A DNA stretch of 64,000 nucleotides from an uncultured Candidatus Poseidoniales archaeon. GTDB taxonomy: Archaea > Thermoplasmatota > Poseidoniia > Poseidoniales > Thalassarchaeaceae. The notes under the pieces are model-generated. The model had not been told where the DNA came from. It made no database searches and saw only the letters and a list, made by a program, of their open reading frames with translations. Positions 20,417-49,800 of this stretch are shown one piece after another. How positions within the stretch are numbered: the first letter of the stretch is position 1; each line of letters begins with the position of its first letter. The stretch lies in contig CACELO010000004.1 of the NCBI GenBank assembly GCA_902560445.1, forward strand, positions 9,170 to 73,169. Direction: 5' to 3'. A program made the position numbers and the translations under genes.

Positions 20417-20448
20417 TGAATTACGGCGTCACACCGACCTTTTGGCCT

Positions 20449-23262
20449 TCACTGTCGCCTGCGTCCGACAATCATCGCTGCACATAGCATTGCTAAGGTT
20501 GCCAAAACTAATCCAAATCCAGGTGTGTTGTTGTCATCCGGAACATAGTCTGGACCATCTGTATTGTCGGAATCCAGTTCATCGCAAATTCCGTCACCAT
20601 CTACGTCCTTTGGTACTGATGTTGAGTCTACATGGTCGCTTCCACAGGAGTCTTCTTCAGTATCTAACCATCCATCACCGTCATCATCTGTATCTGCATT
20701 ATCACCAGTTCCATCAGAATCAGAATCGCTCCATTCTGCAGAGTCAGATGGGAAAGCATCGACATCGTCTCCGAAACCATCTCCGTCATCATCAGGGTCT
20801 TGTTCATCACACATTCCATCATCATCAAGGTCGTCTGGATTTGATAGGTTGTCCATTGAATCCGAGCCACAATTATCCTCTACAGAGTCGGGCCAGCCAT
20901 CTCCATCATCATCAGTGTCTGCGTTGTCCCCAACTCCATCCTCGTCCGAATCTTTCCATTCACTAGAATCGACTGGGAATTTATCCTCATAATCTCCAAC
21001 CCCATCATCATCACTATCTGAATCTAGAGGGTTAGTTCCAGTTGCGACTTCATCTGAATCGCTTATTCCATCATTATCGTCATCAACATCAATACTATCA
21101 CAATCGCCATCACCATCTGAATCACTTGGTAGTGAATTTCCATCTAAAGGATCTGAACCACACAATCCTTCGATGCTGTCAGAACTACCATCTGCATCAT
21201 CATCATCATCTGTTGCGTCGCAATCTCCATCGCCGTCGGTATCGGTTGGTATTGAACTAGAGTCCATTGAATCTGAAAGACAAGTTTCTTCGATTGAATC
21301 TGAAAAACCGTCATTGTCATCATCTGTATCGGAATTGTCCCCAATCGCATCTCCATCAGAATCTGCCCATTCGCTTTCGTCCAAAGGTGCCCAATCCTCT
21401 GAATCAGGCACTCCATCTTCGTCGTCGTCGGTGTCTATTTCATCACAGGTACCGTCACCGTCAGTATCGGTTGGTATAGACATACCATCCATCGGATTAC
21501 TACCACAGACATCCTCTAGGTTGTCATTGTACCCGTCGCCATCATCATCGACGTCTGCATTATCTCCAATTCCATCACTATCGGTGTCCATCCATTCACT
21601 TGGATCTAATGGAGCCCAATCCACAGAGTCGTCGTATCCATCTCCATCATCATCAGTATCTGCATTATTTCCTATACCATCACCATCGGTGTCTTCCCAC
21701 TCATATGGATCTAGAGGGAATGCATCCTCGGAATTGATTATTCCATCCCCATCATCATCGACATCTAGAGCATCACATGTCCCATCTCCATCAGAATCTA
21801 GCGGAACACTTGATGAGTCTAATGAATCAGAGCCACAATCTAACTCGTTTTGATCTAGGTATCCATCTCCATCGTCGTCATCATCTGCGTTGTTTCCAGT
21901 GCCGTCGTTATCTGTATCTGTGTCCTCATTAGGGTCTAGAGGGAAATCATCGTATGCATCATCGACACCATCTCCGTCATCATCGTTATCTGCATTATCA
22001 CCAGTACCATCTCCATCGGTATCTGTGTCTTCGTTTGGATCTAAGGGGAAGTCATCGTTGGTATCGTCAACACCATCTCCATCATCATCGGAATCTAATG
22101 TATCACAGGTCCCGTCGCTATCCGTGTCGGTAGGGATACTGCTTGAGGAAAGTGGGTCAGAACCACAATCATTCTCAACAGAATCACTGTAAGAATCTCC
22201 GTCGTCATCATCATCGGCGTTGTTACCAATTCCATCACCGTCGGTATCCGTATCTTCATTCGGATCTAATGGGAAATCATCCGCAGAATCATCGACTCCG
22301 TCATTATCGTCATCAGCATCAGCATTGTCCCCGATACCATCCCCATCATTGTCAGCCCATTCACTAGGATCGAGAGGGAATGCATCATTGACATCTAGGT
22401 AACCATCATTATCATCGTCATCGTCTTCAACGAGAGTTGTTGTAGTAGGATTTCCGGAGCTACTACTTGAGAATACAACATTATCGACATAGACTGATTC
22501 AGATTGTGAATTAGAAGTGAATTCAAATTCTAAATTACCCTGCCCAAGAGAGCTAATGTTAGAAGTAAAACTAGTCCATAATCCCATATATGAAGCAAAA
22601 CCACCGTTATTTCCTCCTCCTGTAGCACCGGTTGCGTTTACTAATTCGACTGTTGAGGTACTCCCAACGAATCGAATAATTAGATGGTCGGAATTCTCGT
22701 AACTATTACTCGAACCACCTTGGACATATAAATCGAAAGTCATTGAATCCGCTGTTACGTCATCAAGAGTCAAAGTTACCATCCCATCAACATCACCCAT
22801 TTGGTATCCTTGAGTTCCATCTGTGTAATTCCCAACAGTACCTGTATAGTTAGCGGTACCAAAGTAATCGCCATCTGTAAGACCAACACTTCCGGTAGAG
22901 GTGTAGTACAAGGTGAAGCCCATCTCTGCACCGGTGGTCTGGTTGTGAGCTATATCGGGCTCATTTGCATTGTTCCAAAGGTACCTACTTACCGACTCGC
23001 TTCCAGTGTCGAAATATTTTGCACCATTGGTAAATGGGTCTTCAAATGAAGTATACGCTACAGTTCCCGAACTACTGGGGCAACTGATTGTATCTGGCAT
23101 TCCATCGCCGTCGGTATCGGTATCTGCGCATGGGTCATTAGGGAAGTCATCAGCAGAATCATTCACTCCGTCTCCATCGGAATCTGTTGCCATTACATTT
23201 GGAACCCATGAAACCATGAGTAGTGCAATCAATAGTACGAGTGGCTTAGGGGTACTGGTCAT
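20449..23262 (-). CDS. Hyper-acidic TSP3-repeat surface protein with a PGF-CTERM sorting signal (paralogue of the downstream gene)
   Basis: 937-aa ORF. Signal peptide LVLLIALLMVSWVPNVMA. About 200-aa beta-sandwich-like domain ending SVYVDNVVFS. A long TSP3 array follows. C-terminus NTPGFGLVLATLAMLCAAMIVGRRRQ. Confidence 0.85.
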   Translation of the reverse strand: MTSTPKPLVLLIALLMVSWVPNVMATDSDGDGVNDSADDFPNDPCADTDTDGDGMPDTISCPSSSGTVAYTSFEDPFTNGAKYFDTGSESVSRYLWNNANEPDIAHNQTTGAEMGFTLYYTSTGSVGLTDGDYFGTANYTGTVGNYTDGTQGYQMGDVDGMVTLTLDDVTADSMTFDLYVQGGSSNSYENSDHLIIRFVGSTSTVELVNATGATGGGNNGGFASYMGLWTSFTSNISSLGQGNLEFEFTSNSQSESVYVDNVVFSSSSSGNPTTTTLVEDDDDDNDGYLDVNDAFPLDPSEWADNDGDGIGDNADADDDNDGVDDSADDFPLDPNEDTDTDGDGIGNNADDDDDGDSYSDSVENDCGSDPLSSSSIPTDTDSDGTCDTLDSDDDGDGVDDTNDDFPLDPNEDTDTDGDGTGDNADNDDDGDGVDDAYDDFPLDPNEDTDTDNDGTGNNADDDDDGDGYLDQNELDCGSDSLDSSSVPLDSDGDGTCDALDVDDDGDGIINSEDAFPLDPYEWEDTDGDGIGNNADTDDDGDGYDDSVDWAPLDPSEWMDTDSDGIGDNADVDDDGDGYNDNLEDVCGSNPMDGMSIPTDTDGDGTCDEIDTDDDEDGVPDSEDWAPLDESEWADSDGDAIGDNSDTDDDNDGFSDSIEETCLSDSMDSSSIPTDTDGDGDCDATDDDDDADGSSDSIEGLCGSDPLDGNSLPSDSDGDGDCDSIDVDDDNDGISDSDEVATGTNPLDSDSDDDGVGDYEDKFPVDSSEWKDSDEDGVGDNADTDDDGDGWPDSVEDNCGSDSMDNLSNPDDLDDDGMCDEQDPDDDGDGFGDDVDAFPSDSAEWSDSDSDGTGDNADTDDDGDGWLDTEEDSCGSDHVDSTSVPKDVDGDGICDELDSDNTDGPDYVPDDNNTPGFGLVLATLAMLCAAMIVGRRRQ
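20550..22430 (-). repeat. Coding tandem array of diverged TSP3-like repeats
   Basis: Alternating Cys-containing units (E..CGSD..D..S.P.DTD.DG.CD) and Cys-free units (D.FP.D..E..DTD.DG.GDN.D.DDD.DG). Confidence 0.8.
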
Positions 23263-24680: not shown

Positions 24681-24699
24681 CGACCACCATAGGTGGTCG
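24681..24699 (+). promoter_or_regulatory. Perfect 8-bp hairpin CGACCACC-ATA-GGTGGTCG between glyA and the M60-like gene; the 3' arm contains the GGTGG Shine-Dalgarno
   Basis: Inverted repeat read directly from the sequence. It lies 30 nt after the glyA stop and ends 5 nt before ATG 24705. Confidence 0.4.
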
Positions 24700-24704
24700 A
24701 ACAT

Positions 24705-27700
24705 ATGAGGACAAAGGCCGCCACGTCTGTCCTCCTCACAATGCTGATGCTATCATCAGGCTGTTTGGGTCTGTTCGGAGATTCATCTGTTGAACCCGAG
24801 ACCATTGATTGTGAAGTACAACCAAATCATCCAGATTGTATTGAGGAACAGATAACTCAAGATGATTGTAGAACAGATCAAATCTTTACAGGATCCGAAT
24901 GTCGTCAAATGCAAAAGCCAGAAAATCTGTCTTATGGTTTGAGTATGGTATCTTTAACAATTGGAGAAGCAATGCAATCATTAACACCTTCATTTATAGG
25001 CGATGGACCTCAATTTTGGATAGTAAATCCGAGCCTTCCCTTAGGAATCATTTTCGACAGATATAGTGGAGTGATTTCAGGTACCCCTGAAGAGGTAAGT
25101 GAATCAATTAGATACACAATTGTCGGGTCAAATGCAGTAGGTTCAACGAATGCATGGATTGACCTAGAGGTAATTGTGAATTCACCTACTGCAATCAACT
25201 ACCTAGAACAAACACTTGCTTGTGAGTTAGGCAAATCTTGTGGAATTCCTTCTCCAATTCTCGAGGGGGGAGCGCCCGATGATTGGTCGGTATACCCACA
25301 ATTACCTAATGGGATTTCACTATTTCCCGATGGCTCAATTTCTGGAACCTCTAATCAATTGGGAGATTCTAACTATACAATAAGCGCCGCAAATATGGCA
25401 GGTTCAATTGAAACCACAATTCGAATAATCGTTCTCCACGAAGCTCCTATGGGGTTAGGGTATGGAAGTAACAATTTGCAACTTAGTATCGGTGATGTGG
25501 TGCAGGTAATCCCTTCTACCACCGGCGGAGAAATCGTCTCATGGTCAGTAGAGCCGCCATTCCCTGAGGGACTCAATTTAATGCAAATTGATGGTTCAAT
25601 TCGTGGCTCGCCAACAGAGGTTCAGAGCCTGACCATGCATAGAATTACGGCTTCGAACTCAGGTGGTTCGATTTCCGTTGATGTTCTAATCAGTGTTGCC
25701 GATATGCCTGTGTCAAACTTGTTATACAATCCTTGGGAACATGATTTAACAATTGGAGAACAGATTTCGATCACACCGTCATATTCAGGAGGGACACCCG
25801 ACTCATGGCAGATATCCCCTAGTCTACCTTCGGGATTCCAATTCAATTCAGCTAATGGTACAATTTACGGAGTCGCCAGTGAAGTACAATCATCTTGGGA
25901 ATCTTGGATAATCTGGGCAAACAATACCGGAGGGTCAACATCTACTTTTTTCAAAATCAAAGTTACCAGCATGGCTCCTGACCTGATATCATGGGAAAAT
26001 AATGAGTATATTCTAGAATCTAATCAGAGTGTCTTTATTCAAGCAAATAACAATGGCCCGGAAATTGAATCTTGGGAAATCGAACCACAACTTCCAGACG
26101 GGCTAACTCTTCTCGATAATGGCAGTATTTTTGGTACGCCAACACACAATAGTAATTGGATAGAGTATACCATTTGGGCAAATAATTCTGGAGGTTCTGT
26201 GGGTCTTAATCTTTGGATTGTGGTTCATGATTTGAGGGCGGATCAAGAGGAATTGTTGCGCGGAATGGGGCAAACCAATTGGGGTGGCTGGCCATCTCCA
26301 ATTCTACCAATTGGAGAGTGGTCTTTTCCCGTTGGATTTGCTGAAGGTGGCTATACAGATAGTATCCCAGTTATTTCTGCGAGTCATGTTGGTAGAGGCA
26401 AGATGCTAGGATACGGTCACGAAAGTTGGGTAGATGGGGCGGGAATCGAAGAGACAGAATTCTCACTACGAGCTGTTGAATGGGTTTGTGGCGAGAACGC
26501 GAACGTAGGTCTTGCCTATGGAGCAGGATTCGAAGACTTCGAAGACGAGTTACAAGCCGAAGGACACACAGTACATCTCTCAGTAACACCCGCGGACCTT
26601 ACTGGAATAGATTGTCTATTGGACGAATTTTGGAACGGGCACGACGACCAAGATAATCTGAATTTAATCAATTTCATGCTTGCAGGAGGCGGGCTAATAA
26701 TGGGTGGTCACGCTTGGTATTGGTCATACTCAAATTCAGATGTGGCTCACAATTATCCCGGTAATAAGATTGCAAAAACCACCGGTCTTTTCGTCTCTCA
26801 GGCTTGGGGTGACAACAGTGTCAATCTAACCGAAACTCCACATCCTTTGGCGAGACCGCAATCCGCGATCCAAGCGATTTACGATGACCGCATAAATAAC
26901 CAAAAACTCTCTATTAATGACGCTTCAATAGCCGATTCTACACTCTCGGTTTGTACTGGGGTTGTGAGTTTAGATTTCCATGATTTCTGGTCTCCACTTC
27001 GAGATACAGTTAACGCAACAGGATGGACAGTAATTCAATATGGAACTCTTTGGCAAAATGTTGGACATAACATGGGAGATGACCCAGTTGCCGACACGCT
27101 ACTCAGGGTCGAGGCTGCGCTAACACAAGGGCTTCCAGCGAACGAATTACTAGCACATCCTAGCCATGTGGAATTTCCCGGCGAAGTGCCTGCAAATGCC
27201 ACTAGAGTGACTACCACTGTTTCAGTCGATGGTAACCAAAGTGGTCTTCCGAGTAACTTTGGTTATGCGGGTGCCAGAGCTCATGTTAGGATGAGTACAG
27301 GACTATATGCAGCACCTGGAGATGTTGTGACGGTAACCCTTCCTTCGAAAATAGTCGACTCAGGATCCTACGTCTTGGTAGGAGCGCATAGTGACAAGTT
27401 GTGGTCAAAGAGCCAATTACATCGCCATCCAGAGATTGTCAGATGGTGGTATGTTGATGATGTTAGCATGGAGGTTGGAAATGCCTTCGGGGGGCCGATT
27501 TATATTGCAATAGACCCGGGTTCTACATTGGGTGATTTCCAAGTTAATTTCACAAATGTGGTAGAGGCCCCGATGTTTGTTCTTGGAGAGACTTCCGATT
27601 TTGAATGGATATATTCAGAAAGCGATAATCCCGCTCCTTGGGCCGAATTGGTTTCGGATAATTTCATTATGACAGTTCCAAGTAATGAAATTCGGGATTT

Positions 27701-28706
27701 AACAAATCCAACAGATTTGATGGACTGGTGGGATATTGCTCTAGAAATGGAGCATGAATTGTATGGCTACTTACCGTGGCCAAGAGTTGAGCGAGCCGTC
27801 TTTGATGCTCAGATATCAGCAGGTTGGATGCATTCTGGATATCCATTCATGGCTCATGATTTGAGCGTGGCAGGAGTAGTCAATGTGTCCTATATGTCAG
27901 AGAATGGAGATTGGGGGATGTTCCACGAATTAGGACACAACCATCAATGGATGCCTTCCACGCTTCCGGGAACAACAGAAACTGGATGCAATTTTGCTAG
28001 TGTCTATCTGATGGAAGATTTAGTTGGAATAGATGGTCACAACGCAGTTGACCCAGCTCAAAGAGCAAATCGTATGAGGGGCTATTTTGATGATGGTTCA
28101 AATATAGCCAATTGGTCTGTTTGGACTGCCTTAGATACCTATTTGATAATCAAAGAAGAGTGGGGTTGGGACCCGATAACTCAAGCTTTAACTGTATATT
28201 ACACACTACCTGCGGCAGAGGTTCCAACAACTGGTGATGAGGAATTCAATGCCTGGGTTTTGCATCTTTCAAACACAACAGGGTACAATTTAGCTCCTTA
28301 TCATGCCGCGTGGGGGTTCCCACTTATACAGAATACACACGATTCGCTTACCCATTTCCCAATATGGGTAGATGATCCGTTACGAGGCGAATATTTCACC
28401 TATCAAGCGATACTTCGAAACTTGGGCGTAAATAGTACCACATCCAGTAGTTCAACATTTAATTGGGAAACTTACGATAATGGAACGAATACCTCGCTAA
28501 CAATTTACTACGGGCCAATGGATATGGGTAACCAATCTTGGGTTTGGGCCAATAGTGCACCCTTAGGTGACTCAGAAGTTGGTTGGTCAGATTACGAAAT
28601 TACAGGGCTATCTAGTAATTCGACTTACTACGCCAGAGTCAAGGCTTCGAATGAAATTGGAGACACATGGTTCGGTCCTGTTAATTGGACTACATCCAGT
28701 AATTGA
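24705..28706 (+). CDS. Secreted or lipobox-anchored M60/enhancin-like zinc metallopeptidase with five putative-Ig (He_PIG/dystroglycan-cadherin-like) repeats and a C-terminal FN3-like domain
   Basis: HEXXH motif MFHELGHNHQW (HELGH at 27924-27938), as in M60-like peptidases. N-terminus MRTKAATSVLLTMLMLSSGCLG (lipobox-like). Five approximately 65-aa repeats of the type W.I.P.LP.GL.....G.I.GTP. C-terminus YYARVKASNEIGDTWFGPVNWTT. The ORF track start is GTG 24693. Confidence 0.8.
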   Translation: MRTKAATSVLLTMLMLSSGCLGLFGDSSVEPETIDCEVQPNHPDCIEEQITQDDCRTDQIFTGSECRQMQKPENLSYGLSMVSLTIGEAMQSLTPSFIGDGPQFWIVNPSLPLGIIFDRYSGVISGTPEEVSESIRYTIVGSNAVGSTNAWIDLEVIVNSPTAINYLEQTLACELGKSCGIPSPILEGGAPDDWSVYPQLPNGISLFPDGSISGTSNQLGDSNYTISAANMAGSIETTIRIIVLHEAPMGLGYGSNNLQLSIGDVVQVIPSTTGGEIVSWSVEPPFPEGLNLMQIDGSIRGSPTEVQSLTMHRITASNSGGSISVDVLISVADMPVSNLLYNPWEHDLTIGEQISITPSYSGGTPDSWQISPSLPSGFQFNSANGTIYGVASEVQSSWESWIIWANNTGGSTSTFFKIKVTSMAPDLISWENNEYILESNQSVFIQANNNGPEIESWEIEPQLPDGLTLLDNGSIFGTPTHNSNWIEYTIWANNSGGSVGLNLWIVVHDLRADQEELLRGMGQTNWGGWPSPILPIGEWSFPVGFAEGGYTDSIPVISASHVGRGKMLGYGHESWVDGAGIEETEFSLRAVEWVCGENANVGLAYGAGFEDFEDELQAEGHTVHLSVTPADLTGIDCLLDEFWNGHDDQDNLNLINFMLAGGGLIMGGHAWYWSYSNSDVAHNYPGNKIAKTTGLFVSQAWGDNSVNLTETPHPLARPQSAIQAIYDDRINNQKLSINDASIADSTLSVCTGVVSLDFHDFWSPLRDTVNATGWTVIQYGTLWQNVGHNMGDDPVADTLLRVEAALTQGLPANELLAHPSHVEFPGEVPANATRVTTTVSVDGNQSGLPSNFGYAGARAHVRMSTGLYAAPGDVVTVTLPSKIVDSGSYVLVGAHSDKLWSKSQLHRHPEIVRWWYVDDVSMEVGNAFGGPIYIAIDPGSTLGDFQVNFTNVVEAPMFVLGETSDFEWIYSESDNPAPWAELVSDNFIMTVPSNEIRDLTNPTDLMDWWDIALEMEHELYGYLPWPRVERAVFDAQISAGWMHSGYPFMAHDLSVAGVVNVSYMSENGDWGMFHELGHNHQWMPSTLPGTTETGCNFASVYLMEDLVGIDGHNAVDPAQRANRMRGYFDDGSNIANWSVWTALDTYLIIKEEWGWDPITQALTVYYTLPAAEVPTTGDEEFNAWVLHLSNTTGYNLAPYHAAWGFPLIQNTHDSLTHFPIWVDDPLRGEYFTYQAILRNLGVNSTTSSSSTFNWETYDNGTNTSLTIYYGPMDMGNQSWVWANSAPLGDSEVGWSDYEITGLSSNSTYYARVKASNEIGDTWFGPVNWTTSSN

Positions 28707-28709
28707 AAA

Positions 28710-29777
28710 TCAATTACTTACTCTTCTTAGTAACTCTTCGAGGCTTACTTTTGGACAGTAGCGCTGGTGTAAACTAGCAACGGGAATCCAGATGAGTGTA
28801 TGTGCAAATGTGACAATAAAAGCCTCGGGGATAGATAGAAGCGGTTTATCTATCATGTATTCTGCAGCAATCCCAAGAATCGCAAAGTGAAGGACATAGA
28901 TGGTCAAAGTCAGGCGCCCAGAAGCTTCTAACACACTCAAATCAATTAGTCCATTCTTGGAATTTCGTAGGAGTAATTCGTTTGCAATAAGAACGAACAT
29001 TGCAGTTATGAAAATGAAGAATGTTGTTGCCGGGAAGAATGTCAAAATCGCATCACCTTCGGTTAGTGCCCACATCTTTCCTGAAGTAAATGATAATCCT
29101 ATACTAATCAAAAATATAATTCCACCAATCGCCATGATGTTCTTTCTTGTTTCAAAATCATTTTCGGATTCTGCTATTATTGCGCCTAAAGTCGAAAACG
29201 CTAACCACGGGAAAACAGGGTATGTTCCATTGACTAAGAGCCGGTGACCCCATTCTCCAACCCCAGCAGAATCAACCCTTGAGGCCCAAGATAATTCAGA
29301 ACCATTGGATTCTCCCAGGAGTAGTGGCGTTAGCGCTAGTAACGAGAAACTTGCAATTAATTGCTTACTAGTAAATCGAGAAATTAGTGGGGCAAAAACA
29401 GCAGCAATTGCAATTAAGGTTAGAACACCTGGAGTGTGCCATTCGAATCTCCCACCTCGGTCAATGGCAAGTAGGAAATTGACAAGGAATTGACAAGCAG
29501 TTAGAATTACTACTCGTGGTAAAACCCAATTTATCCAAGCGGAGGAATTCAAGCCATCGGCAAATCTTTTCTTAGCCCCTCGATGCATTCCCCAACCTGA
29601 AACAGTAATGAATAGTGGAGCCGCCATGCCTCCAAATGCAGCAGCAACGAATGCAGCAGGATGGCCAACAGTGATTCCTTCCGGAGGTAAAATTGCTGCT
29701 GTGTGAACTTGGACCATGAAGAGAATTGCAACCGCTTTCATTTGGTCGATATAACCTAATCTCATGCACTCACCCAA
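28710..29777 (-). CDS. Polytopic membrane protein, acyltransferase-3 / DUF1624 (heparan-alpha-glucosaminide N-acetyltransferase-like) family, tentative
   Basis: 355-aa ORF with about 9-10 TM segments. The N-terminal LGYIDQMKAVAILFMVQVHTA resembles the family's opening motif. It overlaps the upstream gene's end by 8 nt. Confidence 0.45.
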   Translation of the reverse strand: MGECMRLGYIDQMKAVAILFMVQVHTAAILPPEGITVGHPAAFVAAAFGGMAAPLFITVSGWGMHRGAKKRFADGLNSSAWINWVLPRVVILTACQFLVNFLLAIDRGGRFEWHTPGVLTLIAIAAVFAPLISRFTSKQLIASFSLLALTPLLLGESNGSELSWASRVDSAGVGEWGHRLLVNGTYPVFPWLAFSTLGAIIAESENDFETRKNIMAIGGIIFLISIGLSFTSGKMWALTEGDAILTFFPATTFFIFITAMFVLIANELLLRNSKNGLIDLSVLEASGRLTLTIYVLHFAILGIAAEYMIDKPLLSIPEAFIVTFAHTLIWIPVASLHQRYCPKVSLEELLRRVSN

Positions 29778-31047
29778 TAATCTGAGAAATTCGAGATTCT
29801 ACCATTACCTGCTCTAGCGAGACCGAGAAAGCAGAGGATATTTTCTCCGACAAGCCATCGGGCAATTCTTCGCGATGAAAAATTACAACCAATGGATCAC
29901 CAATCTCCACTTCATCACCAACTTGGGCTTCTATAATCGCCCCGACAGCATGGTCTACGCTGTCACTTAGAGTTTTCCTACCCGAGCCTAATTCGAGACA
30001 GGCGAGTGCAATTGACATCGCATCAATGTCCTTAATCCATCCTTTTTTCTCAGTGTAAATCTCGGTTGAGAGTAAATCATCTCCAAGTAGACCGAGGGAA
30101 CTTAGCATTGCGTGGTCGCTTGCAAAGTCATTACGATTTCCTCCTTGAGCTTCGACCATATCTAGGAATTTTGTGAAAGCGCTACCATCATTCAAAGAAT
30201 TATGAATCATTAATGCACCTTCTTCCATGTTTTCCGCAATCCCCGATGCAGCCAATAAAATCCCTGCCTGAACACAAACCAGTTCTTCGATGTCATGCGG
30301 CCCACGACCACATAGAGTTTCAACAGATTCAACTATTTCGAGCGCATTTCCTACTGCGCAGCCTAATGGTTGGTCCATGGTTGAAAGAACCACAGAAGTA
30401 GCAATACCCATTCCATTCGCTGCATCTGCCATCGATTGGGATAGGGCTTCAGCTTGTTCTCTTTCGGTCATGAATGCCGCTCTGCCATATTTTACGTCTA
30501 GAACCAAAGCCGAAATTCCTTCAGCGGCTTTTTTCGATACGATTGATGAAGTGATTAGTGGAATAGACGCAACAGTACTTGTTACATCACGTAACGCGTA
30601 CATACGCCTATCGGCGGGGGTAAGTGAATCCGTTTGTCCAACCATTGCAAATCCAATTTCCCCAACTTGTTTTTGCAATTCATTTATCGATAGATCGACG
30701 CGAAAACCAGCTATACTTTCCAGTTTATCCAAAGTGCCTCCAGTGTGCCCTAACCCTCGTCCTGAAATCATCGGCACTTTGAGCCCACAAGCGGCTAGAG
30801 CGGGTGCTAAAATGATGGAGACCTTATCTCCAACCCCGCCCGTTGAGTGCTTATCAACAACGAGATGGCTCCAATCTTTGGGCCAAGCCAAGACCTTTCC
30901 TGAGTCTCTCATTGCTTTGGTAAGAAAGATTGTTGAGTTTTCATCGAGTCCGTTTTCAAATATATCCCTCAACCAATCGATGACCAGCTCATCACTAAGT
31001 GAACCATCCACGACTCCGTTTACAATATCGGCGATTGAATCGCTCAT
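29770..31047 (-). CDS. deoA: Thymidine / pyrimidine-nucleoside phosphorylase family protein
   Basis: 425-aa ORF. DKHSTGGVGDKVSIILAPALAACGLKVPMISGRGLGHTGGTLDKLESIAGF is the family signature. ATGA overlap with the upstream gene. Confidence 0.9.
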   Translation of the reverse strand: MSDSIADIVNGVVDGSLSDELVIDWLRDIFENGLDENSTIFLTKAMRDSGKVLAWPKDWSHLVVDKHSTGGVGDKVSIILAPALAACGLKVPMISGRGLGHTGGTLDKLESIAGFRVDLSINELQKQVGEIGFAMVGQTDSLTPADRRMYALRDVTSTVASIPLITSSIVSKKAAEGISALVLDVKYGRAAFMTEREQAEALSQSMADAANGMGIATSVVLSTMDQPLGCAVGNALEIVESVETLCGRGPHDIEELVCVQAGILLAASGIAENMEEGALMIHNSLNDGSAFTKFLDMVEAQGGNRNDFASDHAMLSSLGLLGDDLLSTEIYTEKKGWIKDIDAMSIALACLELGSGRKTLSDSVDHAVGAIIEAQVGDEVEIGDPLVVIFHREELPDGLSEKISSAFSVSLEQVMVESRISQIIG

Positions 31048-34000
31048 GCCTCATCCTCGCCGTATTCATCGCGTAATTCTTCGATACTCATTCCCTTGTC
31101 CATTAGGAATTGAACCTGATTCCGGTCAAGATTTTCGAAGCCAAAACCATCTAGAACAATCCGCCCATGTACCCCGTCATCTCTACCTTCACTCCACTCC
31201 CTCGTGTCTTCGGATTTATCATCGAATCGAGTACCCTTGAGAATAGCTTGTTCAGCATTAGTGTCATCGAATCGATAACCAGAATCATCGATAAGTCGAG
31301 AATCGGTTTTTGTCCCGGGTCTCCTTACCATTGTTAGTCCGGCAACAACTAAAGAAATCGCCGCAATTACTGTCAGCGTCAATAGAAATTTTGCCCCCGG
31401 AGTAGAAAGTGGGTCATCTCGAACATTGTCCTCTATCCACCCTCCATTTTCTCCATCATTGTTTTGTTCATCATTGGTATTGGTATTGTTTCCTTCACCA
31501 TTGTTATTATCGATGATTTCATCTTCATCGCACCCAAATTGTATACCATCAGGTATCCCGTTATCATCCACATCATTGGAATTCATGGCAACTACTGGAG
31601 ACCTTCCTAGTGATTGAGCGAATTCAGCTTCCTCGCCATCTAAAATACAGTCGTCATCCGTGTCATTGTCATTTGGATTTCCACCCCAAAGGTACTCATT
31701 CAGATTATTCAAACCATCTTCGTCTAAATCTAGTGACTGCTCGCTTAGAGCCGTTCCAAGTATTGCTGCAGAATGCCGATTCAAACCGTATTGAATCTCC
31801 CATATATCCGGTAGAAGATCTCCATCTGAATCTGTGGTTGTATCAAGACGAGACCAATCCTCCTCGAATGATTGCAAATACTCAGAGGTAAGTTCTTGTC
31901 CGTGAATTAATACTCCCATTTCTCTATTTCTTAATGCGGCGTTTGAACCCCAATTCATGCTTCCAACAAGAACGCTCTCGCCATCAATTATTGCACCCTT
32001 GTTATGGAGTTTGGTAATAGTGTCTGACCAAGCCATGAGTCGTGCTGTGACATCAAGACCTTGGGTTGCATTCCAATTTGTATTGAATAGGTTCACTGCA
32101 TCCCTAATTTCATCATCGCTATCGGCATAAAAGCCATTCAATAGTAAGCGGACTTGAACTCCCCTCTGAGCTGCTTCGTAGATTGCTTCGATAATTGGAT
32201 TATCACCGAATCCCCAATACCAATCTAAGTCTAAATATTGCAATGAAAGTTCAATGGCCGAATCCGCCGATTCAATCATTTCGATTATTCCATCTACACA
32301 ATCGTCTGGACATGTCATCAATTGCATTTCGAAAGGTCCAGAATATGACTGAGTAATAGGTTCTTGAAATGAGTCACCAGTGGGGTCTTCCATTTCCCAA
32401 TCGAAAGTTGGTGCATGATTGGCTGAGTGTGGTGATATGTGCAGGTGATTTTCATTTTCGTCCCATGATAGACGAGATAGAACCAACTCAGCAAATGAAT
32501 TTGAATTGACAATTACTGACCACTCTCGATTACCAACCCCATCTAAAGGTAGGCTTGTATCCTTCCAATTTCCTGAAGAAATCCATACACTTTCCGTATC
32601 CCTCACAGCAACTTTGCTGTGGATGTAAGAATATGGAGAACTAATCAAACTCGGGTCTTCCATCCAGAGAACGGTTGCTCCTGCATCATGGAGAGTTTGG
32701 GCGTGTCCTTTTTGTTTATTTTTGGTGCTACTTCCACCCAGTATACCTTCTTCTAGAAGAATTGTTACAGAAACACCTCGGTCAATTGATTCTATTAATG
32801 CGGTCGTCAGGTCTGGACTCATAAACTGGTAGACATGTAGATGAATCGATGTTTCTGCCCCCCCAATCCAATGCATCAAGTCATTGAACGAAGTATCTGG
32901 GCCGATTGAAGCTGATACAGTGGAGGATTCTTCTAAGGTGATTTTTCCTCCATCACAGAATGTAGAAGCTCCGATTCTAATCCATCTATATTCCCAATCT
33001 TCCCCTGTGTTTGTGTCTGGATTATCTCCACACCCAGATCCACGCATCAAAATCAACCCCGGGGTCCCATCCCCTGGTACTGAAATAGCGCCGCCATTCC
33101 AACCCTCGATTTCAGCATCACCGCCTCCATATACAACCGCATCAACCACAGTTCCATTTGGAGATTTTAGTTGGAGAGCGCTTCCTGAATCGACAAGCCA
33201 AGGCATATTGTTCATCACAACATTCCCATCAATGGCAGAAATGCCTCCATCTAAAAATAGGTTGTCTGGATTTTCGGTTAGAACAATCGACCCTCCTGCA
33301 GGTATCACTAGTTCGTTGAATGTTGATATCCAGGGTGTTGTGGACCTGATGCGTTCTATGGTCCAGCCAGTTAAATTTGCAACCTCATTACCCAAATTAC
33401 TCAATTCAAACCAATCGTTATCCCTGTTAGGCACTTCACCCGGCATAAGACGAGTGAACTTGACATCATATTTTCCATTCCATTCTGAAGGTTGTAAATC
33501 AGTAGGCGTTTCTGGATTATTTTCGTCATCCGAACCTCCGATATTTTGGTTTCCTGGGGTTGATTGTTCTGAGTCAATCCACTCCGCGCTTCCGTTAGAT
33601 GGTATTTTGGAAATTCCATTTGACGCCTGCCCTGTGGTTACTTCATCAACTACACCACCTTGTTCATCTGCCAGGAAAATAGTCTCTCCAGCGTTGTTTA
33701 TTCTTAGAGTTCCAATTTCATTTTCAGCAATAACTGCGTATGCTCCTGCTTCGATGTGATAAGGCGTATTTAAATCACTAAATCCTACCCAACTAGTTTC
33801 ATTGATTGGATGTGTCCATCCGCCAATATCGACAATTGTCCATCCCTCTAGATTTACAGAACTAGAGCCGGTATTGAGAAGTTCAACCCATTCACCTTGA
33901 GGAAAGATTCCTTGATCAGATCCATCTGCATTCGGCATTAGTTCGTTAATACAAACTACGCATGAGGAATTTTTTATCGCCTCTCGATTTTCTTTAGAAT

Positions 34001-34091
34001 CATCGACTTGTAGAATTTGAGAGGGACCTAGTAGACTCAGTGTCAATACTGCAATGATGACTACTGCTAGCCTTCCTGGCCCCCTTTCCAT
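31044..34091 (-). CDS. Membrane-anchored extracellular protein: 2 lamin-tail domains + 2 HKD (phospholipase D / Nuc-like) domains + TSP3-like segment + TM + 93-aa cytoplasmic tail
   Basis: 1015-aa ORF. LTD motifs VCINELMPNADG...EWVELLNTGSSSVNLEGWTIVD and VKFTRLMPG...DWFELSNLGNEVANLTGWTIE. HKD1 is IHSKVAVRD...SSGNW (32598-32621). HKD2 is LHNKGAIIDGESVLVGSMNWG. TM FLLTLTVIAAISLVVAGLTMV. Confidence 0.8.
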   Translation of the reverse strand: MERGPGRLAVVIIAVLTLSLLGPSQILQVDDSKENREAIKNSSCVVCINELMPNADGSDQGIFPQGEWVELLNTGSSSVNLEGWTIVDIGGWTHPINETSWVGFSDLNTPYHIEAGAYAVIAENEIGTLRINNAGETIFLADEQGGVVDEVTTGQASNGISKIPSNGSAEWIDSEQSTPGNQNIGGSDDENNPETPTDLQPSEWNGKYDVKFTRLMPGEVPNRDNDWFELSNLGNEVANLTGWTIERIRSTTPWISTFNELVIPAGGSIVLTENPDNLFLDGGISAIDGNVVMNNMPWLVDSGSALQLKSPNGTVVDAVVYGGGDAEIEGWNGGAISVPGDGTPGLILMRGSGCGDNPDTNTGEDWEYRWIRIGASTFCDGGKITLEESSTVSASIGPDTSFNDLMHWIGGAETSIHLHVYQFMSPDLTTALIESIDRGVSVTILLEEGILGGSSTKNKQKGHAQTLHDAGATVLWMEDPSLISSPYSYIHSKVAVRDTESVWISSGNWKDTSLPLDGVGNREWSVIVNSNSFAELVLSRLSWDENENHLHISPHSANHAPTFDWEMEDPTGDSFQEPITQSYSGPFEMQLMTCPDDCVDGIIEMIESADSAIELSLQYLDLDWYWGFGDNPIIEAIYEAAQRGVQVRLLLNGFYADSDDEIRDAVNLFNTNWNATQGLDVTARLMAWSDTITKLHNKGAIIDGESVLVGSMNWGSNAALRNREMGVLIHGQELTSEYLQSFEEDWSRLDTTTDSDGDLLPDIWEIQYGLNRHSAAILGTALSEQSLDLDEDGLNNLNEYLWGGNPNDNDTDDDCILDGEEAEFAQSLGRSPVVAMNSNDVDDNGIPDGIQFGCDEDEIIDNNNGEGNNTNTNDEQNNDGENGGWIEDNVRDDPLSTPGAKFLLTLTVIAAISLVVAGLTMVRRPGTKTDSRLIDDSGYRFDDTNAEQAILKGTRFDDKSEDTREWSEGRDDGVHGRIVLDGFGFENLDRNQVQFLMDKGMSIEELRDEYGEDEA

Positions 34092-34143: not shown

Positions 34144-34160
34144 GGCTGGCTTTGCCAGCC
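34144..34160 (-). terminator. Hairpin GGCTGGC-TTT-GCCAGCC downstream of the 34177-36963 gene
   Basis: Perfect 7-bp stem. A third copy of GGCTGGC at 34169-34175 could pair alternatively with the GCCAGCC arm. Confidence 0.35.
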
Positions 34161-34176
34161 GTAGTATAGGCTGGCC

Positions 34177-36963
34177 TCAATCTTCGTCTTTTGATACTGC
34201 CATAGGTCCTACACCGCTGAATCCTAGACCACCGATTAGAATCATCGCTAAACCAGCAAGGTAAACGACTGCGGTAACTGCATCAATTGTTGCAGTTCCT
34301 TCAAGTTCACAATCTCCACTACCTCCAAAATCGGTCCAATACATCGGTTCCATATTGTCCAGAACTCTACATTCAAAAGTTTCAGCGTCTTCATCTGAAA
34401 TTTCGGAAAAGGTATGTATTTCAAAGACAGGATGTGTATCAACATCAATGGTAGGATTCATGTGTCCTGGACCTCTTAAATCCAAATTAAACACAGACAC
34501 TGATTTTCCATACATAGCTGCTTGAGTAATGGGTTCAACCTTGATTTCAACGGACGATCCGAAGTAAACTGGTAGTGCGCCTGGTAGAATATCTACATAG
34601 GAAGCCGAGCCAATTAATTTAGCTTGGATTTGGGTTACAGCGGGATCAATAGTTATGCTGTGAGACTTCATTTCTATTCCCTTGTAAGTCTCTGTTTCGC
34701 CGGGTACAGAGGTTCCAATCGCGTACCCTCCAATGTTTGCTTTGAACGAATTGTCGAAGTCCGCTAATCCGCCTATGGCTCCAGCGACAACGGTATCTGA
34801 ATTTCCAACATGATCTGTAAGTAATCCTAATGATGAAGTCTCTCTGTTGTCAGCTCTCCAGGGTAGATCTTCAGTTAATCCGTAGATTTCGCCATCCTCA
34901 CAAGGATAGTTTCCAGCGGAATCAGGTTCTGCTAAACTTCCGTCAGTATTCAGTTTGATGTCACAATATCCATCGCCATCAGAATTGATGTATCCCTGTA
35001 GAAGCCTTTGACCCATCGTACCATCATTAGAGTGGGACCCTGTTCCTGTGCTTACAACATAAACGTCATAATCACCGGTAGATACATTATTTGATCCATA
35101 ATAGGTAGCATTTGTCTCAAGTGTAGACCATCCAACATCCATATTGTTGATGTCATCGAAAACTACGTCTGCTACTATTGGGTCTCTCCATCCATACAGC
35201 CAATTATTAACTGGTTGTGTGAGGTATGCAGACCCTCCGTATTGGAATCCGAGCAAAGCACCAATCACCGAATTAAACATGAAGTCAGCAACCCAACTTC
35301 TCAGAGCAGCTGCTTCGTTCTCCGAAATATCATACAACTCAGCCACGTAGGCATCATCCCAAGTTGATTGGGAACCCCCTTCTCCAGTTTCTAAAGGAGT
35401 ATCTCCGGTTTGAGGCAGAGCCATTCCGGACAATTCTCCGTACATGAAAACGCTGGAATAACTGGTAGTTAGGGCATAAGGAGAGTCATAGAGTATTTCC
35501 TGTACCTTTTCAATACTTAAATCCACAGTCCCCTCATACTCAGCACGGTTTAATCCAATAGGGATGTATCCGCCTGCCACTGGCTCTTCAGCTCCAAATG
35601 ATAATTGCCACCAATCATCTGCGTTTATGGTGCCTTGTCCCCCAGCAAGAATCATTTCGAATTCGGTCGGTGTTCCCACCATGCCAATCCATTCTCCACC
35701 ATAATCTGATAGTCCCAACAATTGGGTTAATCCAATTCCATATTCAGTCATAGTACCGAACAAATCCCCCTGAGCGCCTAACAAAAATAATGCAATTCCG
35801 TTTAGTGGGATACCGCTGTAGTCCGAAACCGAAAGAAGTCCGTTTGGAATTTCAGCGTCGGGTGTTCCAAATATTACGCCATTCAAAACATCTGGGTTGG
35901 TAATGTCAACTCCACTGACTTCATCTAACCTTTCACGCAGGTCATCGACTTGAGTTAAATCAGCCATACCTCCGGCGGATAAGAACTCCTGGCCGGCAAG
36001 AGCATACACGGCCCAATCCATATGAGTTAGTTCAACAGGATCTGTTGAATCGTAGCCAAGAAGGGCTGCACGCATTGGAGTAACCGTTTCGCTTGGTTCT
36101 CCCATACCTGTAATCAGCATTGGTCCGATGTCACAAGTTAATGCAATACAAGTTCCGGTAGATGGGTCAACCGCTGTGTTTAGTATTGAATTTGCAGAAA
36201 GTGAAAAGTCGGGATTCAATACACCCATTCCAGAAGATGAGTTCCAACTATCGTATGCTACGTCTAGAATAGCAGGAGGTGCAATTGCAGCAGCGGTAGA
36301 CTGATTGTAACCAGCTTGTTGCAGTTGTGCTTCAAATCCTGAGACCATTCCCTCAATCGATTCCGCCGCCCATATTGAAGGCGCTCGATTCTGCAAATCA
36401 TTAGTGATCATGTTGTTAGCGAATCCCGCCTTGGCAAAAATTTCACCAAAGGTGATTCCAGTCGAAAGTCCCGCAATCCTTTGGGTATTCCATAATATGT
36501 TGACTTGTGTCACTTCGGTTGTCCCGGGAACCGATTCATGCTCGACTCCATCATCATCGGTCCAAGTACAATCCTCACACCATTCAAAAGAATCAAATGA
36601 GGAATATGTTATTTCGCCCGCTTCGTAATCAAAGTCGAGAATTTCATTAGTGGTAGTAACGTTGTAAATGAAAGGCCCCATTTTGGTAAATTGGTGAGGT
36701 TCCCCCGCTCCTACTTCTACAGGGTTATCGAGAGAATATGCAAAATACACCTTCTCCGAGTACGAAACCAGCCATTCGTCATCATAATCAGCAGTATAGT
36801 CTTGATTTCCATCTTCATCCAGTCCGTCGTATCCCTCTCTTACTACGTCAGCAACTCCAGCCTCAACCTGCCCGGCCACAAAGGGGGCTAAAGCCATGAA
36901 GTTTAGTCCGATTAATATTAGTCCAGTTACAGCTACTACGCTTGCCTTCTGTTGCTTGTCCAT
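34177..36963 (-). CDS. CD36 / LIMP-2 / scavenger-receptor class B-like protein with N- and C-terminal TM anchors and a large inserted region
   Basis: 928-aa ORF. TM1 VVAVTGLILIGLNFMALAPFVAG and C-terminal TM AVTAVVYLAGLAMILIGGLGF. Ordered matches to CD36-family motifs are detailed in the finding at 34177-36963. Confidence 0.6.
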   Translation of the reverse strand: MDKQQKASVVAVTGLILIGLNFMALAPFVAGQVEAGVADVVREGYDGLDEDGNQDYTADYDDEWLVSYSEKVYFAYSLDNPVEVGAGEPHQFTKMGPFIYNVTTTNEILDFDYEAGEITYSSFDSFEWCEDCTWTDDDGVEHESVPGTTEVTQVNILWNTQRIAGLSTGITFGEIFAKAGFANNMITNDLQNRAPSIWAAESIEGMVSGFEAQLQQAGYNQSTAAAIAPPAILDVAYDSWNSSSGMGVLNPDFSLSANSILNTAVDPSTGTCIALTCDIGPMLITGMGEPSETVTPMRAALLGYDSTDPVELTHMDWAVYALAGQEFLSAGGMADLTQVDDLRERLDEVSGVDITNPDVLNGVIFGTPDAEIPNGLLSVSDYSGIPLNGIALFLLGAQGDLFGTMTEYGIGLTQLLGLSDYGGEWIGMVGTPTEFEMILAGGQGTINADDWWQLSFGAEEPVAGGYIPIGLNRAEYEGTVDLSIEKVQEILYDSPYALTTSYSSVFMYGELSGMALPQTGDTPLETGEGGSQSTWDDAYVAELYDISENEAAALRSWVADFMFNSVIGALLGFQYGGSAYLTQPVNNWLYGWRDPIVADVVFDDINNMDVGWSTLETNATYYGSNNVSTGDYDVYVVSTGTGSHSNDGTMGQRLLQGYINSDGDGYCDIKLNTDGSLAEPDSAGNYPCEDGEIYGLTEDLPWRADNRETSSLGLLTDHVGNSDTVVAGAIGGLADFDNSFKANIGGYAIGTSVPGETETYKGIEMKSHSITIDPAVTQIQAKLIGSASYVDILPGALPVYFGSSVEIKVEPITQAAMYGKSVSVFNLDLRGPGHMNPTIDVDTHPVFEIHTFSEISDEDAETFECRVLDNMEPMYWTDFGGSGDCELEGTATIDAVTAVVYLAGLAMILIGGLGFSGVGPMAVSKDED

Positions 36964-46835: not shown

Positions 46836-49800
46836 ATGTCTTATGAAAACGGGAAAACGGGGGACGTCGGTCAGTACAATGGACTGGTTTCGACGCCAGC
46901 GGTGTTAGCAGGAATACTAATCTTATTTTTCGCTGCTACATCCCTCGCTGATGATGTGATGATTGACACAGGAAAGTTGGTTATCCTTCCCGTCGCAGCT
47001 GCATTAGCGGCTGTTATGGGAAGGTTTTGGGTATCTGCCCTTCCTGAAGATTCTCCGATAAATCGAAACTCGGTTTTCGTAATGTTGTTTGCAATCGTTC
47101 CGATAGCATTGGAATTCCTAGGATTCATTGACGCCATACTCGCAACCACTTTTGCATTCATGGCGATTTCAACATTAATTCTTGTCAAATCAAATAGAAA
47201 TGAGGAAGCGACCATTCTATTCACTATGGTCGCAGGATTCCATGTTTCTGTAGCCTACGCTGCGTCTATGCCGGAATTGACACTTTCAGAGGGAGATAAC
47301 CTACAGAATCTGCTTATCGACGTCCAAAGGGCCGGTATAGCGGCTAATTTCTTTTCCTTTTACGCTGCATCTTTGACGCTCGGTACCATTTTCGCTATTT
47401 CTTTCAGAGGATACCTGTATGATGGAGGAAATGGGTCTTTGTTTGAAAGGCTACCACAAAAAATTGATTTTTCAGAACACCGTGATTTACTGATCACTGC
47501 AGTTACCTTATTGATTGTGAACTTAATTCCACTTTGTTCACTGGCAAGTATTTCCAGTGCTGGTACCTTTGAGGAGCACCACTATCTTGGCGGTATTTGG
47601 GCTCTAGTTACTTCGATAGTAGTGATGTTTGTAGCCTTCTGTCGTGCTGAGAGATGGCATGTTCTCGGATCGATAGTTGCGGTAAATTGGCTAATCTACA
47701 CTTTAGCTCACTTGGTAGAGATAGGTGTCAGTCTCCCAGAACAATTGGAATTCCTTGCTGGGAACGATTTCGGTGGAGCATTCTCTTGGTTCTTCATCAC
47801 ATTCTGGTTGAATGTGCTAGGAATTATGCTTGCTTCTAGTGGAAGGTTTGGAGATATTGCTCCTCGCCGAGAACCTAGCCAGTTCCGTTTGTGGTGGAGT
47901 GATAATTCCTATTCAATTCTAGTTGGTTCCGCAGTTATTGTTGGCCTTTTAATCAGGACTGGTTGGAATGTGCTTCCTGCAATGAATGCGAATATAACCG
48001 GACTTTGGGATATGACTGGAGGTTCTGACCCTTGGTACATGAAGAGAGTAGTTGACTACATCGTAGCAGAGCATGCCCACTTCATTTTCGATGCAGATCG
48101 AGCGTATCCGAGTGGTGGAATTAATCCTCGCCCACCTCTATTTTCGTGGTGTTTAGCACTTGGTGGCCTCGCACTCGAGTGGTTAACAGGTATTACCGCC
48201 GACGAAGTCGTTTGGTGGTCAGTTGCAGGTCTGCCAGCAATCTTCGGAGCATTGATTGTTCTACCAGTTGCAGGTATTGCAAACCGTCTTCACAGTGCAC
48301 AAGCGGGGATATTTGCTGCTTGGCTTATGGCACTAATGCCTGGTCACATTAGTCACTCAACATTTGGTCTAGCCGACCACGATTCGTTTGCACTACTTTT
48401 CCTTACCTTAGCCTTCTACTTCTGGGTTAGAACATTAGGGGAAATTGGTAGTGAAAGAGTATTCCGTAACCCAAGTTCCAATCCATTGTACTTGGTTGCA
48501 GGGATTAGAGAGATGTGGAATCGTAATCCAGTAATGATGTCCTATGCAACACTAGCGGGTATCAGTTTCTCTACAGTTGCGCTTGGTTGGAAAGGATTCG
48601 TTTACGGACCTGGAATTCTATTCCTTGCTTTTGCTTTCCAAATCATCCTCAATATGTTCCGCCGACGTGACAGTCTACCTCTTACTTCGGCAGCTTTACA
48701 GATGATGTTTACAACCTTCCTAATTCCTCTCCCATTCTACATTTGGCCTGGTCTTAACTTACTTTGGGCACCTAGCGGATTCCAACCTATGTTCTACATT
48801 GTTGGATTTACAATTGCCTTAGGTTGGGTGGCATCTAGCTTCCGAGACAAACCTTGGCTGTTGGTGTTGGGTAGCGGTGGCATCTTATTTGGCGGCATTC
48901 TATCGGCATTGTGGATTCTACAAACCGCTGAATATTACGACGGTTGGGATATTCTATTCACAGGAGGATTTTATTTCTCAAAGAACAAGATTTTCGGAAC
49001 AATCGGAGAAGCTCAGGCACCGAGTAGAGGTGTACTATTCGCTTCCTTTGGCCCGATTGTTACATTGATTGCATTAGGTTATGCGTTCATCCTTCTATGG
49101 CGTGGGGCTCGAGAAGAAAAGCAAGGCTTGTCTCTTGTTGGTTTGTGGGTTCTAATCGCCTCCTACATGGCTTGGACCGCTGGAAGATTCATTCTCAATG
49201 CAACTCCAGCAATGGCCGTTGTTGGTGCAATAGGTATAGCTGCACTTTGGAAGAGGGCCGATTTCTCAGGCTTCACCAAAGAATGGCGCCGTGCAGGAAT
49301 TGGAACTCCAAGAGCCCGATTCCGTTCGGTTAGAACTACCAGTGTAAAGAAGCCGATGATTCCAGCCCTAGTGCTCGTTTTCATGCTAGTTGCAACTCAA
49401 CATGCAACATATGGTGTAGACTCGGGTATTCCGAGGGGTGAGACTGCATCCGGGGATGTCGATCAGGTGATTTACGATATTACTCCTGATGTAATGAGAT
49501 TCGATGTAGGAGGGCTATCGCTTCTGGATAGCAGTTCCTACAACCCAACTGCGAACTGTGGAAATGGTTGCTGGTACATGGGAACATTCGGTCCTGGATT
49601 CAACGGAGGGGGTTGGAATATGGCCTATGAGTGGCTTTCAGAACAAGATTCAGATGAGAAATTTGGTGAAAGACCTGCATTCGTCTCATGGTGGGATTAT
49701 GGATTCCAAGCTTTGGATTCCGGAGAACATCCTACCGTTGCTGACAACTTCCAGTCTGGAATCCCACATAGTGGAGGAATGTTACTATCTTCAGGTCAGG

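Follow-up and report, generated by a model that had tools for sequence, protein, structure and literature searches.

We analysed a 64,000-nucleotide stretch of DNA from an uncultured Candidatus Poseidoniales archaeon (contig CACELO010000004.1; hereafter the window, with positions counted from its first letter), and find that a gene on its reverse strand encodes a protein that is almost certainly homologous to the CD36 / LIMP-2 / SR-B family. The open reading frame of 928 amino acids (aa) at 34177..36963 (-), which had been proposed from the letters alone in what we call the sequence-only reading, is indeed present and is encoded from an ATG start. Taken as a whole, the findings are best explained by a native Poseidoniales CD36-family hairpin protein that has an expanded apex and that would move hydrophobic cargo inwards, a composite reading for which we see the chances as evenly split. 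The gene and its parts are as follows.

34177..36963 (-), complete CD36-family gene of 928 aa, stop codon included (open reading frame list; PF01130 at 34.3 bits against a cut-off of 26.5)
36865..36963 (-), short N-terminal tail and transmembrane (TM) helix 1, aa 1-33, a signal anchor (hydropathy of aa 7-33; AlphaFold helix 3-43; hhalign to the TM1 region of LIMP-2)
36493..36786 (-), N-terminal CD36 beta-barrel core, aa 60-157, with motif 1 (Pfam; profile against LIMP-2 at E 7e-7; hhalign at 94.7%; modelled strands 66-154)
35323..36492 (-), apex insertion, aa ~158-547, made of a 59-residue helix, a return helix and an all-alpha globular domain (no counterpart in LIMP-2/CD36 alignments; separate model; conservation)
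34351..35322 (-), aa 548-871, with helix 548-575 (equivalent to LIMP-2 apex helix alpha5), the LYGWRDP block, the C-terminal beta-barrel and the helix before TM2 (colinear HMMER/hhalign alignment to LIMP-2 ~144-430; Foldseek; model)
34879..34983 (-), subclade-specific segment, aa 661-695, with Cys667/Cys688 and motif 4 (alignment occupancy)
34180..34296 (-), TM helix 2 and short C-terminal tail, aa 890-928 (hydropathy of aa 890-925; AlphaFold helix 890-915; LIMP-2 TM2 alignment)

The match of the window protein to the Pfam CD36 model, PF01130, exceeds the gathering cut-off (E 1.3e-8), with the best stretch running from aa 74 to 190 against profile positions 55-153, and no other Pfam family matches the protein. 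For comparison we used alignment A2, which holds 16 full-length relatives that are 24-66% identical to the window protein; here all 16 divergent sequences exceed the same cut-off, the best at E 1.3e-19, which settles in the affirmative the Pfam check that the sequence-only reading had put forward. When the A2 profile was run against 177,635 PDB sequences, LIMP-2 (E 7e-7) and CD36 (E 4e-4) were the only significant matches, and the one further row, LAMP-1, was non-significant (E 0.24). The LIMP-2 match is colinear, chain positions 5-114, 127-216 and 346-407 pairing with profile positions 27-136, 549-648 and 749-808. Neither a single-sequence phmmer search nor a profile built from 12 close relatives, which share 72-81% identity with the window protein, matched anything among the PDB sequences, and the CD36 relationship is therefore remote; identity to LIMP-2 is 12-18%. 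An exhaustive phmmer search of 1.84 billion representative proteins returned 113 relatives in all, about 16 of them full-length sequences of 730-969 aa; a protein of ordinary CD36 size, ~470-520 aa, is absent among these full-length relatives.

Profile-profile comparison with hhalign was made against a human LIMP-2 sequence that is identical to the PDB chains over residues 28-432. The N-terminal half of A2 aligns to LIMP-2 at 94.7% probability (E 5.7e-8), and with the insert columns deleted the value is 96.5% (E 7e-10) over 432 columns spanning TM1 to TM2, against the ~50% below which the sequence-only reading had been prepared to abandon its assignment. The C-terminal half is colinear with LIMP-2 and has two high-confidence anchors, YLTQPVNNWLYGWRDPIV against FVTHTVDELLWGYKDEIL and HPVFEIHTFSEISDEDAETFE against FPVMYLNESVHIDKETASRLK. 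Most of the sequence signal comes from the N-terminal ~120 aa and the LWGY[KR]D block; for the C-terminal half, support comes mainly from structure and colinearity. The window protein contains eight cysteines as four closely spaced pairs (129/132, 272/277, 667/688 and 865/885), and no cysteine is invariant across the 16-member alignment, so the metazoan disulfide cysteines are not conserved. Since the three disulfide bridges are treated under an 'in Metazoa' heading and not as family-wide (Boohar et al. 2023, PMC10715195), their absence does not exclude CD36 membership.

An AlphaFold2 model computed on A2 (mean predicted local distance difference test score, pLDDT, 80.4; predicted template modelling score, pTM, 0.72) is confident. 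From the N-terminus it comprises a TM helix, beta strands at 66-154, a 59-residue helix at 158-216, a helix at 221-244 and mostly helical structure to ~547; then follow a helix at 548-575, a beta-rich region at 580-854, a helix at 857-871 and a TM helix at 890-915. Foldseek against the PDB returned LIMP-2 or CD36 for all of the top 13 matches (probability 1.00, E 1.8e-5 to 4e-4), with ~346-366 of the ~390 LIMP-2/CD36 ectodomain residues aligned; the C-terminal half must therefore be included in the match. The runner-up was Mycobacterium smegmatis LmcA (E ~1e-2, probability 0.98-1.0), and the remainder lay at E > 0.8. As modelled, the ectodomain is the asymmetric beta-barrel fold of LIMP-2 and CD36. 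With the family at the head of the PDB matches, the structural check that the sequence-only reading had proposed comes out in its favour, and Pfam, the PDB profile search, hhalign and Foldseek concur on the CD36-family identity that it had assigned.

Five CD36-like signature segments had been quoted in that reading, and all five are located precisely at aa 71-100, 587-598, 621-640, 667-680 and 798-813, with LYGWRDPI encoded by 35176-35199 (-). Motifs 1, 2, 3 and 5 stand, as they fall on columns conserved among the 16 relatives, whose alignment is invariant at W64, G96, P97, W588, L589, G591, W592, D594, N618, P798 and Y800. Motif 4 (CDIKLNTDGSLAEP, aa 667-680) is doubtful. It lies in a ~35-aa segment that is present in only the window protein and its closest representatives, P0121-P0123, with a shorter and divergent form in P0125 (mean occupancy 0.30 in the 16-member alignment). 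HMMER pairs LPWR with LDWW of LIMP-2, which places motif 4 out of order, and hhalign, with the segment forced into match states, pairs CDIKLNTDG with CNMINGTDG at low confidence. Being limited to a subclade and placed differently against LIMP-2 by the two programs, motif 4 is ambiguous.

Kyte-Doolittle hydropathy detects exactly two hydrophobic segments, at aa ~7-33 and ~890-925, which are modelled by AlphaFold as helices 3-43 and 890-915, and both align with the TM regions of LIMP-2 in the insert-deleted hhalign comparison. The hairpin described earlier, with a short N-terminus, TM1, a large ectodomain, a C-terminal TM segment and a short tail as in CD36, is thus borne out by hydropathy and by the model. 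From this topology, together with the paired cysteines, the N-glycosylation sequons and the AglB gene within the window, we infer that the ectodomain faces outward.

The sequence-only reading had further placed an insertion of ~390 aa between motifs 1 and 2. An insertion of that size exists, however its boundaries shift from aa ~190-575 to ~158-547. It is located between the equivalents of apex helices alpha4 and alpha5: helices occupy the alpha4 (aa 158-216) and alpha5 (aa 548-575) positions, and a helical domain of ~330 aa stands between them. N155 and W588 lie 413-508 aa apart in the long forms and 285 aa apart in one short clade, whereas the equivalent residues of LIMP-2 are ~23 aa apart. 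Modelled separately (aa 150-590), the insert is all-alpha (pLDDT 88.9, pTM 0.86). Neither its fold (best E 1.3) nor its sequence (best E 0.49) has a significant match in the PDB, and no relative of this archaeal head domain outside its own family was detected in the representative-protein search or in the PDB sequence and fold searches. Its conservation equals that of the barrel core, with 15 near-invariant columns in aa 366-530 compared to 18 in aa 696-870. In eukaryotes the CD36 ectodomain measures anything from 413 to 2,294 aa, the expansions being lineage-specific, independent and in every case at the apex bundle, and the protist SR-B homologues (Dictyostelium LmpA, Phytophthora, Tetrahymena) are expanded at the same two helices of the apical three-helix bundle while the barrel is kept; they differ from the archaeal protein in being eukaryotic, and their expansions are mutually independent (PMC10715195). 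As the hotspot is the same, the insertion represents a familiar mode of variation for the CD36 family. The inserted domain itself is new, and this head of ~390 aa, for which the PDB offers no structural relative, may be a new module for ligand capture.

To assess the distribution, we scanned one genome per GTDB species with a family-specific peptide pattern, which yielded 213 relatives, and 79 loci were kept and examined. All 79 belong to Poseidoniales, both families of the order being represented, with one copy per genome as far as seen; within the 64-kb window there is no second copy of the gene. Close homologues are labelled Candidatus Thalassarchaeaceae or Thalassarchaeum, that is, Marine Group IIb of the order Poseidoniales, and a cluster at 99% identity comprises 9 contigs across NCBI, JGI, ENA and Tara data. 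No relative was found on any viral contig. The window is a segment of an archaeal chromosome, encoding TFB, CDP-archaeol synthase, an AglB/STT3 fusion and glycine-cleavage proteins, and the guanine-plus-cytosine (GC) content at the CD36-like gene, ~0.45, equals that of its flanks. The archaeal host assumed at the outset is consequently upheld: the gene is found within Poseidoniales DNA with archaeal synteny, and relatives occur order-wide in archaeal metagenome-assembled genomes (MAGs). The best explanation is that the gene is native to, and vertically inherited in, Poseidoniales. Three apparent bacterial carriers, L017, L027 and L060 (labelled Pedosphaera sp., Gemmatimonadetes bacterium and Yoonia sp.), were rejected as mis-binned Poseidoniales contigs; L017 and L027 have the gene order of the window at 45-77% protein identity to it, and L060 is 92-98% identical in DNA to the Poseidoniales contig L069.

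Eukaryotic CD36 proteins are described, in published abstracts and in PMC10715195, as moving fatty acids, cholesterol and esters through an internal tunnel. By analogy, the archaeal head domain would dock on or capture extracellular hydrophobic material; the cargo may be lipids or fatty acids that particles and dissolved organic matter supply, possibly also carotenoids or retinal; and the barrel would shield this cargo en route to the outer face of the cytoplasmic membrane, with no direct energy input. We tentatively favor this inward mechanism, at just about an even chance or slightly below. Several observations weigh against the overall interpretation. The C-terminal half by itself is non-significant in hhalign (E 0.027, probability 1.8%), and the template modelling scores that Foldseek reports against LIMP-2/CD36 are moderate, 0.38-0.44 when normalised by the target, with a root-mean-square deviation of 7-13 A. 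LmcA/PgfA, the sole characterised prokaryotic relative of the fold, acts in outward trafficking of envelope lipids. No lipid-activation or beta-oxidation gene is conserved nearby. MAGs from Guaymas deep water also carry the gene, and a role tied only to proteorhodopsin is therefore unlikely. Finally, in a sister clade with a short insert, the gene seems to form an operon with genes for an ABC ATPase and an FtsX permease, an arrangement that points to energy-coupled extraction or export.

Two alternatives retain the fold and change the role, and we regard each as unlikely. The protein could be mainly a docking receptor or adhesin, with the head binding a particle, a cell surface or a partner and no lipid passing through the barrel. 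There are precedents among the animal members in the binding of beta-glucocerebrosidase by LIMP-2 and of PfEMP1 by CD36. In eukaryotic members, ligands are recognised by the apex, which also diversifies between lineages (PMC10715195), the archaeal head is large, confidently folded and highly conserved, and the archaea of Marine Group II (MGII) are thought to attach to particles, according to a genomic survey. Large proteins that are secreted or anchored abound in the window, among them an M60 peptidase, proteins with TSP3 repeats and a choice-of-anchor T protein. On the other hand, no partner gene is conserved alongside, and the barrel core and membrane-proximal elements are as conserved as the head, which suggests that the barrel is more than a stalk.

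Alternatively, and with the same low probability, transfer could be directed outwards and supply the envelope or S-layer with lipids, lipid-linked glycans or lipoproteins of the cell itself, powered in some lineages by an ABC transporter of MacB/Lol type. Congruent with this, LmcA follows directly after LIMP-2/CD36 in Foldseek, LmcA/PgfA is implicated in lipoglycan and lipid trafficking, and its family, PF11271 (PorA/DUF3068), is matched weakly by two of the 16 relatives (best 17.0 bits against a cut-off of 29.5, E 0.004). The sequence affinity is nonetheless clearly to PF01130, and the window protein itself has no match to PF11271. The clade with the transporter genes is the short-insert one (L080 6001-11733; L083; L085), whose proteins are 725-742 aa, on ~1.85-Mb contigs labelled 'Euryarchaeota archaeon' with a GC content of 0.34 (from one locus, L080). 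The gene order is CD36-like, ABC ATPase, 808-aa FtsX permease and a 121-124-aa protein, separated by gaps or overlaps of a few nucleotides, and the ABC ATPase/FtsX arrangement is kept across members that are 68-100% identical. This link is however missing from the window and from all 79 long-form loci. An ABC ATPase near some of the long-form loci was considered as an FtsX partner and rejected, as it pairs with a permease of a different, BPD type.

The remaining alternatives fare worse than the inward reading and its two functional rivals. The notion that an unrelated, beta-rich surface protein resembles CD36 by chance, through scattered motifs, draws on the empty PDB searches with the single sequence and the close-relative profile, the low identity to LIMP-2, the C-terminal half that is non-significant by itself and the doubtful motif 4; yet four independent tests concur (Pfam in 16 of 16, a profile that retrieves LIMP-2/CD36 only, hhalign at 95-96% and the Foldseek top 13) and the alignment is colinear from TM1 to TM2, leaving this explanation highly improbable and effectively refuted. 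That the gene contaminates the MAG from a eukaryote, or was passed into it by one very recently, is the least probable of all, and recent transfer is refuted, for although other known members of the family are eukaryotic, and its presence is inferred for the last common ancestor of eukaryotes (LECA; PMC10715195), the gene is embedded in an archaeal segment with TFB, CDP-archaeol synthase and AglB/STT3, matches its flanks in GC content, has relatives in both Poseidoniales families with synteny common to close relatives, and none of the 113 relatives among the 1.84 billion representatives is of ordinary CD36 length.

Compared to LIMP-2 (SCARB2), CD36 and SR-B1 (PDB 4F7B, 4Q4B and 5LGD), the archaeal protein shares the terminal TM hairpin, the asymmetric beta-barrel ectodomain, the passed PF01130 gathering score, the top structural matches and a colinear set of blocks: an N-terminal block ending in GP(Y/F)xY, LWGY(K/R)D, EP(I/L)T and the PV(F/M)...ID(D/K)E(T)A helix before TM2. 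It differs in its archaeal host, its 12-18% identity, the ~390 extra apex aa, the missing metazoan disulfide cysteines and an extreme acidity (140 Asp and Glu compared to 28 Lys and Arg). LmcA/PgfA (MSMEG_0317, Rv0227c; PF11271 PorA, formerly DUF3068), which is reported from Actinobacteria only and whose CD36 fold is published, is an elongated beta-barrel with cavities and lacks an apical helix bundle, whereas the archaeal apex is enlarged and helical; the archaeal protein fails PF11271 and passes PF01130, and its Foldseek likeness to LmcA is weaker (E ~1e-2 as compared to 2e-5 for LIMP-2/CD36).

The latest family-wide survey, by Boohar et al. 2023 (PMC10715195), covers eukaryotes only and infers an origin in LECA, and we found no paper linking CD36 with Marine Group II or other archaea. 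The earlier statement that all characterised members are eukaryotic accordingly holds for the searchable literature. It requires adjustment in two respects, as databases auto-label archaeal CD36 proteins (PF01130 is precomputed on all of the 120 matches listed, with one NCBI record bearing the name 'CD36 family protein') and as LmcA is a published structural relative. What is new is a bona fide archaeal CD36-family member with a novel apex domain; the family label in databases and the LmcA fold were known.

As to where the family originated, an ancient transfer out of a eukaryote would fit the distribution among archaea, which is narrow as far as tested, and a prokaryotic ancestry would fit the existence of LmcA. 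An order-wide clade in the most abundant planktonic archaea, together with the distant LmcA, makes these two possibilities testable by phylogeny. The most far-reaching scenario combines a CD36 family older than eukaryotes, in which the SR-B proteins of LECA descended from a prokaryotic superfamily of envelope lipid conduits, with a missing route of hydrophobic-nutrient uptake in MGII; we consider this combination improbable. If true, uptake would serve the order-wide beta-oxidation with fatty acids, and retinal or carotenoids would be scavenged where proteorhodopsin occurs without a beta-carotene 15,15'-monooxygenase. Carotenoid uptake by NinaD/SR-B1 in animal vision offers a parallel. Marine Group II is credited with degradation of lipids and fatty acids, the latter being encoded by all Poseidoniales genera according to MGII genomic surveys, and many members appear unable to make their own retinal, as the beta-carotene cleavage enzyme is missing in most MGII subclades despite the presence of proteorhodopsin. 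No uptake route for hydrophobic molecules is named in two MGII genomic surveys, and the CD36-like protein is a concrete candidate for it.

Turning to the surroundings of the gene, no functional or operon partner is conserved across the 79 loci, and the neighbourhood varies even between close relatives; a TctA block, for instance, is present in ~15 of the 79 and is gained or lost even between close relatives. Directly past the stop codon of the CD36-like gene, at 34154-34176 (-), lies a GC-rich inverted repeat (GGCCAGCC, 8 nt, GGCTGGC) followed by more GC-rich repeats, which may mark where the transcript ends, setting the gene apart from the PLD-like gene beyond. The latter, just downstream at 29770-34091 (-), encodes a 1015-aa protein with two lamin-tail and two PLD-like domains and a C-terminal anchor, and is adjacent to a thymidine phosphorylase gene; the two are jointly present or absent, being found in 8-9 of the 79 loci. 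Its best NCBIfam matches (DrmC, NucT nuclease and cardiolipin synthase) are all below cut-off. Together they resemble a module for extracellular nuclease activity and nucleoside salvage, carried on an indel block. The PLD-like protein was considered as a phospholipase partner and rejected, given that its best matches, below cut-off as stated, are Nuc-type nucleases and DrmC and that it travels with a nucleoside phosphorylase. The unannotated neighbours h313 and h401 were likewise rejected as FtsX-like proteins, h313 being a choice-of-anchor T surface protein.

Further along the window, a 1337-aa M60-like (enhancin-type) peptidase with He_PIG and fn3 domains is encoded at 24693-28706 (+). In 16 of the 79 loci its gene keeps synteny with the CD36-like gene, and the peptidase probably belongs to an extracellular protein-degrading repertoire. 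Two adjacent proteins of 879 and 937 aa at 17777-23262 (-) each contain one bacterial TSP3 (thrombospondin type 3) repeat near aa 730-760, and this region has the strongest negative GC skew of the window (-0.23 to -0.24). A 601-aa protein at 9343-11148 (+) has an N-terminal pair of EF-hands (Pfam E 1e-14), the remainder being without a Pfam match. On the other side of the CD36-like gene, a giant open reading frame of 3178 aa at 46836-56372 (+), unusually long for an archaeal AglB, has the STT3/AglB N-terminal region at aa 383-610 as its sole clear domain, with a weak CarboxypepD_reg match below cut-off. In a second clade, at L026 716-12745 and ~15 related loci, a CD36-like gene 30-35% identical to that of the window is divergent from an adjacent, conserved xanthine-dehydrogenase/CO-dehydrogenase-like cluster with molybdenum cofactor (MoCo), 2Fe-2S and flavin adenine dinucleotide (FAD) subunits. 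An AIM24 protein intervenes in some of these loci, and XdhC and an ArsP-type permease are found on the other side.

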